Assembly (NCBI GenBank): GCA_017992455.1
Contig: JAGOOP010000008.1
Span: 1 to 63,346, forward strand
Source of the DNA: Candidatus Omnitrophota bacterium
GTDB lineage: Bacteria; Omnitrophota; Gorgyraeia; Gygaellales; Profunditerraquicolaceae
Length of the DNA stretch: 63,346 bases
Reading direction: 5' to 3'
Translations under genes and position numbers: made by a program
The notes under the pieces: generated by a model
Seen by the model: the letters and a program-made list of their open reading frames with translations, nothing else
What the model was told of the DNA's origin: nothing
Databases searched by the model: none
Shown: positions 3,296 to 51,254 of the stretch, piece by piece
Layout of the letters: each line of letters starts with the position of its first letter
How positions within the stretch are numbered: the first letter of the stretch is position 1

Positions 3296-5011
3296 GTGTA
3301 TATAGTCAATTATCGCCGCAGGGTTGAAGCGGTATTTTGCGCCGTCCTTATATTTTTTATCGCGTGTTTAGCCCGCCTTTTATACGTCCAGTTCTTCAAC
3401 GCGGATTATCTGGCTTCCATCGCCCAAAAGCAGCACAATCTTTACGTAGAGCTTGAACCCCGCCGCGGCACCATCTATGACTCGAATTACAAACCTCAGG
3501 CCGTGAATCTCGCGTTCGAATCGGTTTTTGCCGCGCCCAACGATATGACGCCCGGGCAGAAGGAAGCGGTCGTGCGCGGCCTGCCCGGCATATTGCGGAT
3601 GGACGCGTCTGTTCTTCGCGACAGGTTGTCCCGCAAAAAATCCTTCGTATGGCTTGCCCGGAAAGTTCCGTCGGAAAAGATCGGTCTGATCAAGCAGCTC
3701 AATCTGAAAGGGCTCGGTTTTATCAAGGAAAGCAAGCGCTGTTATCCCAACGGCTATCTGTTAAGCCATGTGCTCGGTTTTGCCGGTATGGATAACAACG
3801 GCCTCGAAGGCATTGAACTGTGCTATGATAAATATCTCAAGGGCAGGCCCGGCTGGGCGGTGATGCTGCGCGACGCCCGGAGGCAAAGGCTTAACGTATA
3901 CGATAATTCCATGATGCCCAGGGACGGCTACGATATCGTCCTTACGATCGACGAGGTCATCCAGTATATCGCCGAGAGGGAGCTGGAAGCGGTATTCCGC
4001 AAGTACCGCGCCAAAGGCGCTAGCATCGTCGTCATGGACCCGCGCACCGGCGCGGTCCTTGCAATGGCCAACCGTCCGACCTATGATCTTAATGTCCTGG
4101 ACAAGCTTGATAAGGACGTGATGCGCAACCGTGCCGTCTGCGACATGTTCGAGCCCGGTTCCGTGTTCAAGATCGTGACTGCAGCGGCGGCGCTCGAGGA
4201 AAAAAAAGTGAGCGAGATGACGCCTTTTTTCTGCGAGAACGGAGAATACAAGGTCGCCGGCCGCATCCTGCACGACCACCGGCCGCACGGCACGCTTCCT
4301 TTCAAGGAGGTCATCGAGCTTTCGAGTAATATCGGCACCGCGAAGGTGGCGCAGCTTCTGGGAGCCGATATGTTATACCGGTATGTCAAAGCATTCGGCT
4401 TCGGCTCGAAAACGGGCATCGACATACCCGGGGAGATCTCCGGATCCATGAAGCCGACCCGGCAATGGTCCAAGACCACGATCACCTGCGTTCCGATGGG
4501 CCAGGAGGTCGGGGTAACGTCTCTGCAGCTTGCGGCCGGGATATCGGTCATCGCCAACGGCGGCAATCTGATGAAACCGTATATCATCAAAGAAATACGC
4601 GATAAGACAGGGGATATGATAAAATATACAAGCCCTTCAGTGGTGAAACGCGTCATCGATGAAGATACCGCGGCGCGGATGAAAAAGATCCTTATCGGGG
4701 TGATCGAGAACGGGACGGGCACAATGGGGAAACTCGATCATTTTACCGCAGCCGGCAAAACCGGCACTGCGCAGAAGGTCGAGCCGTCGGGCCAGTATTC
4801 GCACAGCCGTTTTATGGCGTCGTTCATAGGATTTGCGCCCGCGGAGGATCCTCAGCTGGCGATCGCGGTGACCGTCGATGAGCCGAAAGGGATGTATTAC
4901 GGCGGAGTCGTCGCCGCTCCGGTGTTCAAGAACGTCGCGGCGGACAGCCTGAAATATCTGCGGACCAAGGATTATTCCGGGGGAGCGCTTGCTTTATATG
5001 AGACTCGATGA
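3296..5011 (+). CDS. ftsI: Penicillin-binding protein 3 / peptidoglycan D,D-transpeptidase FtsI
   Basis: It has an N-terminal TM segment, transpeptidase motifs 'SVFK', 'SSN' and 'KTGT', and the expected dcw position. The start codon is GTG. Confidence 0.85.
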   Translation: MYIVNYRRRVEAVFCAVLIFFIACLARLLYVQFFNADYLASIAQKQHNLYVELEPRRGTIYDSNYKPQAVNLAFESVFAAPNDMTPGQKEAVVRGLPGILRMDASVLRDRLSRKKSFVWLARKVPSEKIGLIKQLNLKGLGFIKESKRCYPNGYLLSHVLGFAGMDNNGLEGIELCYDKYLKGRPGWAVMLRDARRQRLNVYDNSMMPRDGYDIVLTIDEVIQYIAERELEAVFRKYRAKGASIVVMDPRTGAVLAMANRPTYDLNVLDKLDKDVMRNRAVCDMFEPGSVFKIVTAAAALEEKKVSEMTPFFCENGEYKVAGRILHDHRPHGTLPFKEVIELSSNIGTAKVAQLLGADMLYRYVKAFGFGSKTGIDIPGEISGSMKPTRQWSKTTITCVPMGQEVGVTSLQLAAGISVIANGGNLMKPYIIKEIRDKTGDMIKYTSPSVVKRVIDEDTAARMKKILIGVIENGTGTMGKLDHFTAAGKTGTAQKVEPSGQYSHSRFMASFIGFAPAEDPQLAIAVTVDEPKGMYYGGVVAAPVFKNVAADSLKYLRTKDYSGGALALYETR

Positions 5012-44480: not shown

Positions 44481-45233
44481 GAAGTAAAGTTTGCGACCTT
44501 CCGATGTAAATCGGAATGAGAAATTCGGCTGTATGCTGGAACATCCGTAGTATCTCAAGATACCGAAAGGTGAAAATTCTTGAGTGCGGACAATCAGCAG
44601 GGAAGTCGTAATTGACCCCTCAGAGACTACACGCCGACCTCTTAAGGAGCAAAGCTTGGATAAAATAACCGTTGCTTATCTTCAAGGAACCTTGGGAGAT
44701 TCAACGTATAGCAAATTGCATAAGACGTATAGAATATCTCAGAATAATAGAGAATGGTTGCTTATGCTTAAAAATTTGCTTCAGTCGTTGGAGATCAAAG
44801 GATGGATATATAAAGAAGGCAAATCCAGGGACGTATATGTTCTTGAGACTACCTTCCAATCTTTATCCGGAGATTTTGATCCCTGTTCTCTCGAGACTAC
44901 CGAAGAAAAGCAAGCATATATACGCGGTTATTTTGATGCTGAAGGAGGCACTTCCCGAGTTAATACGGTCAGATTTTATCTGCAGTTCGCAGAGAAAAAT
45001 AAGACACGAATCGAGAAGGTCCGGAATCTCCTGAAAGAATTAGGGATCAATTGCGGGAAAATTCATAATCCCAGCAAGGTAACCGATCCTGATTATTGGA
45101 GATTTTATGTCAGTGCTGATTCCTACGATAAATTCGTTAAAGAAATCGGATCCTGGCATCCTAGAAAGCAGAAGCTTTTATCCAAAAGAGTGAAGATATA
45201 GTCCACGCTCTGTGGCGACACAGGGAGTACGTG
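44481..45233 (+). mobile_element. Group I intron in 16S rRNA (between E. coli-equivalent U1498 and A1499), 753 nt
   Basis: The flanks AAGTCGT|..|AACAAGGTAGCC restore the universal AAGTCGTAACAAGGTA. The 5' exon ends in T and the intron ends in G. IGS GCGAC (44493-44497) pairs with GUCGU via a G.U pair. Core motifs CAGAGACTACACG and GAAGATATAGTCC are present. Confidence 0.85.
44656..45201 (+). CDS. Double-motif LAGLIDADG homing endonuclease encoded in the 16S intron
   Basis: The motifs are 'VAYLQGTLGDST' and 'AYIRGYFDAEGG'. A likely TTG start at 44656 follows an AAGGAG SD (the listed ORF starts at GTG 44584). The TAG stop lies inside the GATATAGTC core motif. Confidence 0.75.
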   Translation: MDKITVAYLQGTLGDSTYSKLHKTYRISQNNREWLLMLKNLLQSLEIKGWIYKEGKSRDVYVLETTFQSLSGDFDPCSLETTEEKQAYIRGYFDAEGGTSRVNTVRFYLQFAEKNKTRIEKVRNLLKELGINCGKIHNPSKVTDPDYWRFYVSADSYDKFVKEIGSWHPRKQKLLSKRVKI

Positions 45234-45845: not shown

Positions 45846-47856
45846 AAGAACTACAATTATAACCGAGTGAGTTATCGACTATTGTCAAGCTACTAAGGGT
45901 ATATGCACGGATGACTTGGTTAGGTGAGGCGATGAAGGACGGGGTAAGCACCGATATGCTTCGGGGAGCAGCAAACATGCTTTGATCCGGAGATTTCCGA
46001 ATGGGGCAACCCTGCGCGTAGAAATACGCGTAACTCTGCGATGAATACATAGTCGTAGAGAGCGAACGGGACGAATTGAAACATCTAAGTAAGCCCAGGA
46101 GAAGAAATCGAATGAGAGTCCCCCAGTAGAGGCGATCGAAAAGGGATGAGTCTAAACCGCGCGAAAATTCCGCAAGGAAAATTTGCGCGGGGTTGCGGGA
46201 CCTCGATGTGATAGTCAGAGGGATAGCAGAATTGCCTGGAAAGGCAAGCCAAAGAGAGTGAGAGCCTCGTAAGCGAAATTCTGATGACGTCTAGAGGTAT
46301 CCCAAGTACCACGGGACACGGGAAATCCTGTGGGAATCCAGGCTGACCACAGTCTAAGACTAAATACTACACCTAAACCGATAGTGCACCAGTACCGTGA
46401 GGGAAAGTTGAAAAGAACCCCGGGAGGGGAGTGAAATAGAACCTAAAATCATATACCTACAAAGCAGTGGAAGGGCTATGCCGTTGGCGCAAGCTGACGG
46501 AATGCCTGACCGCGTACCTTTTGCATAATGGTCCGACGAGTTTATGTTGCAAGCGAGTTTAAGTGTTGCGTGAAAGCGTAACATGGAGGCGTAGGGAAAC
46601 CGAGTGCTAACCGCGCGTTTAGCTTGCAATATAAGACCCGAAGCTGAGTGATCTATCCATGGCCAGGGGGAAGTTCCGGGAAACCGGGATGGACGCCCGA
46701 ACCCTCGAGCGTTGAAAAACTCTTGGATGAGCTGTGGATTGGAGCGAAAGACTAAACAAACTCAGAAATTGCTGGTTCTCCCCGAAACAATTCTAGGGTT
46801 CGCCTTTAGAAACTACATCGGAGGGGTAGAGTGCTGAATGGACTACGGGAGTCTACCGACTTGCTGAGTCCAACCAAACTTCGAATACTACGATGACTAT
46901 CTAAGGAGTAAGACGACGGGGGCCAAGCTCCGTCGTCAAAAGGGTAACAGCCCAGACCACCAGCTAAGGTCCCTAATCATAAGCTAAGTTGTAAAGGATG
47001 TGGATCCGCAATAACAGCCAGGATGTTGGCTCAGAGGCAGCCATCATTTAAAGAGTGCGTAACAGCTCACTGGCCGAGCGAGTCTGCGCCTAAGATGACC
47101 GGGGATCAAGCTTATAACCGAAGCTGTGGGTTCGATCTGCCTTCGGGCAGATAGAGCGGTAGGGGAGCATCGTCCAATTGGGTGAAGCTGTACCGTAAGG
47201 AGCAGTGGACATTGGACAAGGGATTATGTCGGAATGAGTAGCGAAAACGTCTGCGAGAAACAGACGCGCCGAAAGTCGAAGGTTTCCTGGGGAAGGTTAA
47301 TCCACCTAGGGTTAGTCGTGCCTAAGCCGAGGCCTTATGGCGTAGGTGATGGATACAAGGTTAATATTCCTTGACTAACTGATTGGCGTTATCACTTGTG
47401 TGTGACACAGGAGGGACGAGTCTGCGAGGTGTTGGATGTCCTCGTTTTTGCATCCGGAAGGATGCGAAGGGACCCTGAGGTTTCCGAGGGGGAAGTGAAT
47501 CGATTCCACACTGTCCAGAAAAACCACATGAGGAGTCAATCGGTTACACGTACCGGAATCCGACACAGGTAGACCACCAGAATATGGTAAGGCGATCGAG
47601 ATAACCCTCTTTAAGGAACTCTGCAATCTAGCCGCGTAAGTTCGCAATAAGCGGTGCCCTGCCCCGTAAGGGGATGGGGTCTCAGTAAAGTGGATCGGGT
47701 GACTGTTTAGCAAAAACACATCTCTCTGCAAACTCGTAAGAGGACGTATAGGGAGTGACACCTGCCCAGTGCTGGAAGGTTAAGGGAATTCGTCAGTTGG
47801 GAGCAATCCTTTCGAAGCGATGAACCGAAGCCCCAGTAAACGGCGGCCGTAACTAT

Positions 47857-48532
47857 AGGCTGGACCAAATGTAGTTGTAAAATCTGGCTATATGCTGGAA
47901 AATCCCGTTAAGCTGATGGTACATCCCGAATATTATCGGGATCGTGACAATCTGTCAGATAGGGATTATCAGCAGGAAAGACCTGAAGGAGGTCTCCATG
48001 AAAGCTGAAATCGGCTATTATCTTGCCGGTTTTGCCGACGGAGAAGGGAGCTTTAACGTGTCCTTTCGCCCAAGGCAAGACTACAAATCACCATGGAAAG
48101 TTTCTTTGTGTTTCAATATCTCTCAGAAAGATAAAGTTATTCTTGCTTTATACAAACGCTATTTGGGCTGCGGCACACTTCGCGGCAGGCCTGACGGTGT
48201 TTGGTATTTCGAAGTGAATAATCTAAATGCAATCAGGGAGATAGTAATACCTTTCTTCAAAAGATATCCGTTCCTATCAGCGAAGAAAAAACGCGATTTC
48301 GCGAAATTCTGCGAACTTGCCAAGTTGATCACGAACGAAAATCATCTGACAGAAGAAGGTATAAAGAAAATACTTGAGATACGAAGAGACATGAATGATG
48401 GTGGTAAACGAAAATACAGCGAAATGGAGATACTCAGTAAGCTGAAGGAATCCTCAGAGACTATACGCCAGACTCCTCAAACAGGAGATGATATAGTCCG
48501 GTCTTCCGAGGAATCGGAAGTTAACATACACG
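47857..48532 (+). mobile_element. Group I intron, 23S site about L1917 (helix 69 loop), 676 nt
   Basis: GTAACTAT|..|AACGGTCC restores GUAACUAUAACGGUCC. IGS GTAGTT (47871-47876) pairs with AACUAU. The intron ends in G. Core motifs CAGAGACTATACG and GATGATATAGTCC are present. Confidence 0.85.
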
Positions 48533-48543
48533 AACGGTCCTAA
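47998..48543 (+). CDS. Single-motif LAGLIDADG homing endonuclease (I-CreI-like class) in 23S intron 1
   Basis: An ATG at 47998 follows a GGAGG SD. 'YYLAGFADGEGSF' is present. The C-terminus is read through the P7 core. The TAA stop (48541-48543) lies in the downstream micro-exon. Confidence 0.8.
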   Translation: MKAEIGYYLAGFADGEGSFNVSFRPRQDYKSPWKVSLCFNISQKDKVILALYKRYLGCGTLRGRPDGVWYFEVNNLNAIREIVIPFFKRYPFLSAKKKRDFAKFCELAKLITNENHLTEEGIKKILEIRRDMNDGGKRKYSEMEILSKLKESSETIRQTPQTGDDIVRSSEESEVNIHERS

Positions 48544-48546
48544 GGT
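48533..48546 (+). other. 14-nt 23S micro-exon (AACGGTCCTAAGGT, about E. coli 1918-1931) between two introns
   Basis: It is the only rRNA-matching sequence between intron 1 and intron 2. Confidence 0.8.
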
Positions 48547-48740
48547 TAACGTCAAACGCTAGCCTGCTTTGGCAGAGATGCTGAAGAATAATTACCAACT
48601 GTATCGGTGAAACCCGACTCTTGCAAAAGAAGGGCAATACCGAGGGAAGTCGTCAGTGACCCCGTAGAGACTACACGTTGGCTCCTATGCAAATAGGATG
48701 AAGATATAGTCCATGCCAATAGTAATATTGGATTAACATG
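48547..48740 (+). mobile_element. ORF-less minimal group I intron, 23S site about L1931, 194 nt
   Basis: CCTAAGGT|..|AGCGAAATTCC restores CCUAAGGUAGCGAAAUUCC. The intron ends in G. Core motifs GGGAAGTCGT, GTAGAGACTACACG and GAAGATATAGTCC are present. Confidence 0.8.
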
Positions 48741-49310
48741 AGCGAAATTCCTTGTGGGGTAAGTTCCCACGCGCACGAATGGTGTAACAACCTGATCGCT
48801 GTCTCGAAGAGGGACTCGGCGAAATTGTAGTGGCGGTGAAGATGCCGTCTACCCGCATCAAGACGAAAAGACCCCAGAACCTTTACTGCAGCCTATTATT
48901 GGGTTTTGGTTTAAATTGTGTAGCATAGGTGGGAGGCTTTGAGGCCCGGGCGCTAGCTCGGGCGGAGCCGCAATGTGAAATACCACCCTATTTGGACTAA
49001 AATTCTAACCTTCCGGCCTGAATCGACCGGGGGAACAGTGATAGGCGGGCAGTTTGACTGGGGCGGTTCCCTTCTAAAAAGTAACAAAGGGGCCCAAAGG
49101 TTGGCTCAAGCCGGTCGGCAATCGGCTGAGGAGTGTAAGCGCATAAGCCAGCTTAACTGCAAGTCCGACAGGACGCGCAGATACGAAAGTAGGGGCTAAT
49201 GATCCGGTGGTGAAAAGTGGAATTGCCATCGCTCAACGGATAATAGGTACTCTGGGGATAACAGGCTTATCGGGCTCGAGAGTTCACATCGACAGCCCGG
49301 TTTGGCACCT

Positions 49311-49827: not shown

Positions 49828-50571
49828 AAACTGACCGTTGCTGTCTTTAAATCTGGCTATTTGCTGGAAAATCTGGGTATCTCATATTACTAATTGACGA
49901 TATAGTCTCTATATGATACTATGGCGTCGGAAGTGAAAATATATGAGTGCAGATCACCAGCAGGAAAGGCCAAGCGGGATAAAAGAACACTATATCAGTG
50001 GCTTTGTCGATGGAGAAGGCTGCTTCTCGATTACAATTCAGAGAAGCAATAATGTGAGGCTTGGGATTCAAGTAATTCCCGAGTTTCATGTGTCTCAACA
50101 TCAACGAAGAGATGAGGTTCTTTGTGCGATTAAGGAACGATTGGGATGTGGCTATATTAAACCCAATAATCCTAATAATCCAAAAGATCTTACCTCGGTT
50201 TATGTTGTGCGCAATTTAGCCGATATTCGAGACAAAGTTGTGCCATTCTTTAAGAAATATCCTTTGATATCGTCGAAGCAGCAGGACTTTGAGAAGTTTA
50301 ACGAAGTTGTGGCTGCGATGAACAAAGGCGAACACCTGAATAAGAGTGGACTTGCAAAGATATTGAAACTGGCATTCTCGATGAATGACAGTGGAAAATA
50401 TCGCAAGCTGAAAATAGTAGATATATTATCCTATTTGGAATCCTCAGAGACTATACGCCAGAAATCTTCCGCAAGGAGGATCTAAGATATAGTCCGAACT
50501 GCATAGCGATATGCAGAGATTAGCAGAAATGCTTAATCCTTCTACGGTACAATGTAGATGTAACATAATTG
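49828..50571 (+). mobile_element. Group I intron, 23S site about L2604, 744 nt
   Basis: GTGAGACAGT|..|TCGGTCTCTATCTG restores GUGAGACAGUUCGGUC. IGS GCTGTC (49840-49845) pairs with GACAGU. The intron ends in G. It shares AAATCTGGCTAT(A/T)TGCTGGAAAATC with intron 1. Confidence 0.85.
49943..50485 (+). CDS. Single-motif LAGLIDADG homing endonuclease in 23S intron 4 (paralogue of 47998-48543)
   Basis: 'HYISGFVDGEGCF', 'VVPFFKKYPLISSK' and the shared C-terminal 'ESSETIRQ' (read through the P7 core) are present. The TAA stop lies in the J8/7 motif. Confidence 0.8.
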   Translation: MSADHQQERPSGIKEHYISGFVDGEGCFSITIQRSNNVRLGIQVIPEFHVSQHQRRDEVLCAIKERLGCGYIKPNNPNNPKDLTSVYVVRNLADIRDKVVPFFKKYPLISSKQQDFEKFNEVVAAMNKGEHLNKSGLAKILKLAFSMNDSGKYRKLKIVDILSYLESSETIRQKSSARRI

Positions 50572-51054: not shown

Positions 51055-51131
51055 AGCAAAAATTTGGCCCTTTTTCTTTCTAGAAAAAGGACCAAAATTT
51101 TGCAATCGTTACTTAATTATAGCAAAATTTT

Positions 51132-51245
51132 GGAGTGCTCATACCGCGAGGGTCACACCCGTTCCCATTCCGAATACGGTAGTTAAGCCTCGCAGGGCCG
51201 ATGGTAGTGTTTTCGTAAGGATATGCTAGAGTAGGTCGGCGCTCC
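51132..51245 (+). rRNA. rrf: 5S rRNA
   Basis: The terminal helix GGAGTGC/GCGCTCC, CCCGTTCCCATTCCGAA, GCCGATGGTAGTG and AGAGTAGG are present. Confidence 0.85.
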
Positions 51246-51254
51246 TTAAATTCT

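Follow-up and report, generated by a model that had tools for sequence, protein, structure and literature searches.

A homing-endonuclease gene in an L1917 group I intron that ends on a stop codon of the downstream 23S rRNA exon

The endonuclease gene of intron 1 in the 23S rRNA gene studied here has no stop codon inside the intron; its reading frame continues through the 3' half of the ribozyme and across the 3' splice site, and closes on the UAA of CCUAAGG, a motif of 23S rRNA that is universally conserved. Comparison with related introns suggests that a stop borrowed in this way from the exon is a frequent and labile variant within a known and widespread intron family, and that it is best read as a by-product of the constraints acting on the RNA.

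The sequence analysed, which we refer to as the window, is a stretch of 63,346 nt from a metagenome-assembled contig of a Candidatus Omnitrophota bacterium. It holds one bacterial rRNA operon in the order 16S, tRNA-Ile, tRNA-Ala, 23S and 5S, in which Rfam recognises group I intron cores at four sites of the 23S gene and also within the 16S gene (Table 1). The genome assembly comprises 1.67 Mb in 58 contigs, is 89% complete, and contains a single rRNA operon and a tmRNA gene (117.8 bits). Nearly the whole stretch is also present in DNA runs from activated sludge and wastewater.

Table 1 Features of the rRNA operon in the window, with the parts of intron 1 and its surroundings
Feature	Position	Strand	Basis or remark
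16S rRNA gene	from 42942		part of the bacterial rRNA operon
LAGLIDADG_3 ORF in the 16S intron (44481-45233)	44584..45201	+	stop UAG 45199-45201 inside GAUAUAGUCC
23S rRNA gene	from 45883		part of the bacterial rRNA operon
End of 23S exon 1, AACUAU	47851..47856	+	ends at U1917; LSU alignment, pairing read from sequence
Group I intron 1, site L1917 (helix 69), 676 nt	47857..48532	+	insertion in LSU alignment; family covariation of P8/P9
Hairpin AGACCU-GAAGG-AGGUCU with Shine-Dalgarno AAGGAGG (47986-47992), 5 nt before ATG	47979..47995	+	conserved in about 40 relatives
Single-motif LAGLIDADG homing-endonuclease ORF, 181 aa (P0001)	47998..48543	+	translation; PF00961 E=1e-20
J6/7, P7 5' strand (GACUA 48459-63), P3' (GCCAGA 48467-72)	48455..48472	+	translated SETIRQ; Rfam alignment
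P8 hairpin CUCCU-CAAAC-AGGAG	48473..48487	+	hairpin in 59/61 family variants
J8/7 and P7' (AUGAUAUAGUCC)	48488..48499	+	holds UGA and UAG in the two frames unused by the intron-1 ORF
P9, 7-bp stem with GNRA loop (here GGAA)	48503..48520	+	covariation in the family
Micro-exon AACGGUCCUAAGGU, 14 nt, 23S 1918-1931	48533..48546	+	LSU and intron 2 alignments
UAA stop of the endonuclease ORF, within 23S CCUAAGG	48541..48543	+	sequence; translation
Group I intron 2, site L1931, 194 nt, no ORF	48547..48740	+	Rfam Intron_gpI, 50.3 bits
Paralogous single-motif LAGLIDADG ORF in intron 4 (P0002)	49943..50485	+	41% identical to P0001
5S rRNA gene	51131-51247		part of the bacterial rRNA operon

The L1917 intron and the path of its reading frame

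Aligned to the bacterial LSU model of Rfam, the exon sequence runs to ...GUAACUAU (ending at 47856) and is followed by a 677-nt insertion, by ACGGUCCUA, by a 197-nt insertion and finally by AGCGAAAUUCC, the intron-less 23S site being taken as GTAACTAT joined directly to AACGGTCCTAAGG. The exact boundaries were set by the rules of group I introns, which demand that a U precede the 5' splice site and that the intron end in G; the terminal base of intron 1 is G48532, as such introns require. Reading of the sequence gives a P1 in which the exon strand pairs with GUAGUU (47871-76), with a U47856.G47871 pair at the 5' splice site, and a P10 in which GGUCC of the exon (48536-40) pairs with GGACC of the intron (47862-66). 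The partner strands of P3 (47883-88) and P7 (48494-98) can be read in the same way. The Rfam model Intron_gpI (RF00028) gives a weak match to intron 1 over 48236-48520, where it scores 29.2 bits (E about 1e-4) and the gathering score is 50; the model is broken up by the ORF. The 16S intron reaches 54.4 bits, and the L1931 intron lies at the gathering score. For P8 and P9, support comes from the family of related introns described below: at least four closing pairs of P8 are kept in 59 of 61 variants, though their sequences are very different, and P9 pairs fully in each of the 49 distinct sequences, where double compensatory changes are numerous and five positions show four to six pair types. 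The core helices P3, P7, P8 and P9 are thus present in intron 1, the former two by direct reading and the latter two with family support.

In three studies, RNA-library contigs match the exon as far as 47857 and carry on as ACGGTCCT, and in one such contig 47857 is joined to 48741 via 13 letters resembling the micro-exon; the former possibly stem from relatives without introns, and the latter may likewise represent an intron-less relative. These junctions agree with the assigned boundaries, and self-splicing of intron 1 is predicted. Three metatranscriptome contig sets are without cover over the body of intron 1, which we took as no evidence on the efficiency of splicing or on expression. A further RNA-library contig (X19; 48523-48768, 4 differences), which contains the micro-exon together with unspliced intron 2, was set aside, as it could represent DNA carry-over or a relative. 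The micro-exon is wholly in use, with GGUCC serving P10 of intron 1, UAA serving as the stop of the ORF and AAGGU serving P1 of intron 2. Some related loci have the L1917 intron together with one at L1931, and others have it without.

Re-translation gives one open frame of 181 aa, from ATG at 47998 to the TAA at 48541-48543, with no earlier stop. The frame passes through P7, P3', P8, J8/7, P7', P9 and the 3' splice site, and then 11 nt into the micro-exon of 14 nt. Together, the boundaries and the translation place the end of the ORF 11 nt inside the exon and leave the excised linear intron without an in-frame stop, both of which had been claimed in an earlier note on this DNA, whose account of the overlap between the ORF and the ribozyme core is also anatomically correct. 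An open tail of some 27 codons would be expected by chance with a probability of about 0.27, and is therefore in itself not unusual. Should the excised intron form a full-length circle, an event for which there is no evidence, the frame would cross the junction and gain 47 codons before a UGA just after the ATG, for a total of 228 aa.

The GTG at 47944 that was proposed as start by the ORF finder was rejected, because in the relatives translation begins with the ATG just downstream of the conserved hairpin that carries the Shine-Dalgarno sequence. This hairpin shows some compensatory changes among the about 40 relatives (GAUCC/GGAU variants) and may, by analogy with what has been described for I-TevI, restrain translation. 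Enzymes with a single LAGLIDADG motif act as homodimers. An AlphaFold2 model built with 51 relatives is confident over residues 1-153, with the last helix at 142-155, whereas residues 154-181 have pLDDT values below 50 and no secondary structure, so that the C-terminal tail is predicted to be disordered. Relatives in the PDB cover residues 7-137 only; the best are single domains of the two-domain enzymes I-PanMI, I-SmaMI and I-OnuI, and I-MsoI also matches.

The second single-motif ORF of the operon lies in intron 4, inserted between GAGACAGU and UCGG at about L2604, and traverses P7-P3'-P8 in the same frame as the ORF of intron 1. Both contain ESSETIRQ, as had been noted before, and in both it is encoded in the same frame by one 23-nt string, ATCCTCAGAGACTATACGCCAGA, which covers J6/7, P7 and P3'. 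The earlier note had further placed the stops of the 16S-intron and intron-4 ORFs inside the J8/7-P7 motif. This is accurate for the 16S intron, and needs some nuance for intron 4, where the UAA (50483-85) stands directly before GAUAUAGUCC (GAUAUAG) and shares with AAGAUAUAG no more than its two leading A's.

Several side observations concern these other introns. The start of the intron-4 ORF also lies over the core (49943-49975), its first residues, SADHQQERP, being derived from the P5'/P4'/P6 strand GAUCACCAGCAGGAAAGGCC; in intron 1 this string falls in another frame, or is untranslated. An assignment of intron 4 as an I-CreI-type L2593 intron was rejected by counting from A2602. As listed, the 16S-intron ORF has a GTG start and would read SETTRR in its P7 strand; its true start is likely a TTG near 44655, after AAGGAG, which would place the gene in the P8 loop. 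Elsewhere in the genome, a tRNA gene, probably tRNA-Arg(UCU) by reading of the sequence, is split in the anticodon loop by a group I intron of ~190 nt without ORF (L089:1430-1690, minus strand, corresponding to ~4630-4890 of the genome's own contig C35; Rfam 55.4 bits). The P7-P3' string of this intron, CCUCAGAGACUAUACGCCA, closely matches its counterpart in the rRNA introns, being almost identical, and ARAGORN makes no call for the split gene.

Where related reading frames stop

Among proteins in the database, the intron-1 ORF has 4220 relatives, mostly of about 181-183 aa, and many of the best end in ...DDIVRSS-K-EVNI-ERS, which corresponds to the same exon UAA. The ...ERS ending is found in about 80 of the 120 best matches, a figure that we do not take as a frequency, since similarity to the tail of the query biases the sample. 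We therefore used a scan of DNA that is indifferent to reading frame, in which genome and metagenome contigs were searched for the P7-P3' string, a gap, GATATAGTCC, a second gap and ACGGTCCTAAGG. It returned 80 loci, from Omnitrophota, Elusimicrobiota, Actinomycetota, Planctomycetota and unbinned contigs, which together with the window represent 61 distinct P8/P9 variants. The L1917 intron family thus crosses phyla, which makes the closest intron relatives an unsafe guide to the taxon of a host.

The two gaps behave very differently. The one spanning P9 and the 3' tail measures 34 nt in 57 of the 61 variants, whereas the P8 gap takes the value of 14 nt and every length from 17 to 27 nt, and thereby all three frame classes. 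When its length is a multiple of three, translation stops at or before a UGA formed by the last base before GAUAUAG and the GA of that motif (19/61 variants); with a remainder of one, it stops at or before the UAG within GAUAUAG (10/61). With a remainder of two, neither of the J8/7 stops is in frame, and 23 of the 61 variants reach the exon UAA by way of P7', P9 and the 3' splice site, the other 9 in this class encountering an earlier stop in P8, P9 or the 3' tail. Where translation stops thus depends mainly on how long the P8 hairpin is, taken modulo 3. In the window, P8 and two further bases amount to 17 nt, which selects the third, exon-reaching frame. Comparison with homologous L1917 intron ORFs, proposed in the earlier note, accordingly finds the same ending in a substantial part of the family.

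Of the 45 relatives whose upstream ORF measures 150 aa or more, 19 have the exon stop and 26 a stop within the intron. The exon stop is the commonest single state, and the exon-reaching frame class comprises 32 of the 61 variants (52%), compared to an expectation of one third. This excess could reflect weak selection for reading through, or it could originate from shared ancestry, the sequences being non-independent and their tree poorly resolved.

Is the exon stop under selection?

When the exon-stop label is mapped onto a tree built from the endonuclease domain, it requires 14 changes, compared to a mean of 15.1 when labels are shuffled (180 of 500 shuffles are as low), and at least 4 of these changes are forced by well-supported branches alone. 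Two introns with the exon stop (L022 and L065) and one with the J8/7 stop (L025) encode almost the same domain and are set apart by a single A in the P8 loop. Similarly, an intron whose core is identical to that of the window, and which shares its exon stop (L048), has as its sister an intron that stops earlier owing to one extra base after P9 (L070). Close relatives that differ in the length of P8 do so by +3, +1, +1 and +1, with no bias towards keeping the frame. Moreover, the exon-reaching frame is open over the stretch from J8/7 to the exon in 23 of 26 introns that use it and likewise in 23 of 27 introns that use another (Fisher p = 1), and this equal openness marks the open frame as a property of the conserved RNA rather than something kept for translation. 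Finally, compensatory changes in P9 recode the tail of the protein, turning SSEKSEV into SSGKPEV, SFERSKV, SNEKSLV or SSWRHEV. The scattered and labile state, the equal openness, a tail that tracks the RNA and its position outside the fold all argue against selection on the exon stop, which, from these comparative patterns, looks neutral.

The earlier note had proposed that an ORF complete only on the precursor couples expression of the endonuclease to the state before splicing. In an adaptive reading of this kind, the excised intron would be a non-stop message, at whose 3' end ribosomes would stall and be rescued by tmRNA, with the product tagged and degraded. This would leave the unspliced precursor or the intron-3'exon intermediate as the only sources of usable endonuclease, and one could also speculate that a ribosome terminating on P10 might time the second step of splicing. 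The lack of an in-frame stop in the excised intron, the tmRNA gene in the genome, the location of the UAA, which is flanked by the strands that form P10 with intron 1 and P1 with intron 2, the prevalence of the exon stop and of its frame class, and the conserved Shine-Dalgarno hairpin, which suggests regulated translation, would all be in line with such a role, but the majority of relatives with an intact ORF stop within the intron, the state flips among near-identical genes without clustering on the tree, introns that leave the frame untranslated have it open just as often, and changes in P8 length do not favour keeping it. Together with the predicted disorder of the tail, this leaves the proposed coupling possible but unsupported, and we consider an adaptive exon stop unlikely. 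Slightly less likely again is the full form of the idea, in which the borrowed stop would act as a switch in the roughly 40% of L1917 introns that end at the exon UAA: complete endonuclease would be made from the precursor or the intermediate alone, the product of the excised intron would be tagged through tmRNA and destroyed, and a ribosome on P10 and the 3' splice site would delay both exon ligation and the P1 of the next intron until translation is done.

The long open tail might also be the relic of a lost stop codon in a decaying pseudogene. Homing-endonuclease genes often decay after intron fixation, and a cyclic model of such decay is cited in PMC11270868, but several features of the gene speak against this. 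Its LAGLIDADG motif is intact (YLAGFADGEGS, with D14, G15, E16 and G17 invariant among 51 relatives), it matches PF00961 (LAGLIDADG_1) in a single stretch over residues 9-106 with 74.9 bits against a cut-off of 23.1, it is preceded by a strong and conserved Shine-Dalgarno sequence, and the fold of residues 1-153 is confidently modelled. The endonuclease domain is furthermore under strong purifying selection, with a median dN/dS of 0.07 (0.02-0.10) relative to its relatives at synonymous sites near saturation, and a value of 0.02 for the window against the early-stopping sister L070 despite that near-saturation. Judged by its sequence, the gene is live, and decay, which the earlier note had named as a way in which its claim might fail, is a very improbable explanation. 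The note had raised a sequencing error in the same sense, and an assembly error that deleted an in-intron stop or moved the frame is conceivable in principle for a metagenome-assembled contig from a fragmented and incomplete genome. However, a DNA contig from one run (X1) covers 47837-48847 without a difference, though perhaps derived from the window's own source sample, the core of L048 is identical, and the same arrangement recurs in 22 further distinct introns from other organisms; we give this explanation hardly any credence.

We therefore regard it as likely that the intron is an ordinary, active mobile intron of the L1917 family, and that the position of the stop is a labile, neutral by-product of RNA constraint. 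The endonuclease gene lies in the P6 loop, with its 3' end overlying the 3' half of the ribozyme, and since it has no stop codon of its own, translation ends at the first stop offered by the constrained RNA. In two frames this is the UGA or the UAG built into the conserved J8/7-P7' motif U-GAUAUAG, and in the third the conserved RNA is free of stops until the invariant UAA of CCUAAGG, 9 nt beyond the splice site. On this reading, residues 154-181 would be a disordered tail whose sequence merely tracks the RNA. As the exon CCUAAGG is also part of the homing site of the enzyme, each newly invaded allele would itself supply the stop and make the ORF complete, and the absence of a stop within the intron would carry no evident cost. 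[quoted passage not shown]

Implications and relation to known introns

The case shows just how closely a selfish protein-coding gene and a catalytic RNA can be superimposed. Here the endonuclease gene appears to have given up a stop of its own and to rely on stops fixed by RNA, either in J8/7 of the ribozyme or in the rRNA of the host. The three-frame rule set by the length of P8 modulo 3 would explain the length classes of the proteins in databases, and also annotated CDSs that run over unannotated intron-exon boundaries in 23S genes. An example of the latter is found on the chromosome of Ca. Velamenicoccus archaeovorus (L011), where a 184-aa CDS annotated as 'homing endonuclease' (P0053) ends in ...NERS and runs over such a boundary within the 23S gene. 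The view of intron biology is unchanged by these results, unless the non-stop idea proves true by experiment. In the accessible literature, which leaves out most subscription journals, we found no rRNA-intron ORF that ends in the downstream exon, and nothing relevant on a group I intron combining a non-stop message with tmRNA.

Neither the overlap with the core nor the 14-nt micro-exon is new, both having been published already. Haugen et al. 2007 (BMC Evol Biol 7:159, PMC1995217) described L1917, L1931 and L2593 introns in 23S genes of Synechococcus, noted the double constraint on nucleotides shared by ORF and core, and reported horizontal spread of the L1917 family among bacteria and organelles. 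Judged by its insertion after U1917 and by an ORF that extends from the P6 loop into P7-P3-P8, the intron of the window belongs to this lineage, and its closest parallel is the L1917 intron of Synechococcus sp. C9, which has the same site, a single-motif LAGLIDADG gene of the same 181 aa that starts in P6, and an L1931 intron alongside, implying the same micro-exon. The published ORF passes through P7, P3 and P8 and stops in P9' (PMC1995217), whereas that of the window continues beyond P9 and crosses the 3' splice site before ending on the UAA of the exon; the two introns also differ in length (743 nt compared to 676 nt), and the L1931 intron of the window is without an ORF.

The sites and the protein family seen in the window recur in other bacteria as well. 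For CPR bacteria, a survey from 2024 (PMC11270868) gives 23S sites 1917, 1931, 1952, 2593, 2604 and 2657 as locations of LAGLIDADG_1 genes, and an L1917 intron of Thermotoga subterranea is included in a table of PMC1995217. Stacked introns separated by micro-exons also occur outside the window. In Coxiella burnetii, where site and protein family are again the same, Cbu.L1917 is reportedly followed by a micro-exon of 34 nt (L1917/L1951).

More generally, the overlap of ORF and core counts as a standard variant among group I introns in bacteria (Hausner, Hafez & Edgell 2014, PMC3984707, Fig. 2b, refs 35-36). In the td intron of phage T4, the ORF for I-TevI likewise extends over the ribozyme core, such that translation is in both cases expected to compete with folding (PMC3984707), and a hairpin at the ribosome-binding site is found in the window intron too. 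The host gene of the window intron, however, encodes rRNA, so that there is no translation of the exons, and I-TevI is a GIY-YIG enzyme while the protein of the window is of the LAGLIDADG type, with a regulation that is presumed from the hairpin. In terms of the protein, the nearest known systems are the enzymes of chloroplast 23S introns, I-CreI, I-MsoI and I-CeuI, which are also single-motif LAGLIDADG proteins of the homodimer type directed at 23S rDNA, but whose target sites differ from that of the enzyme in the window.
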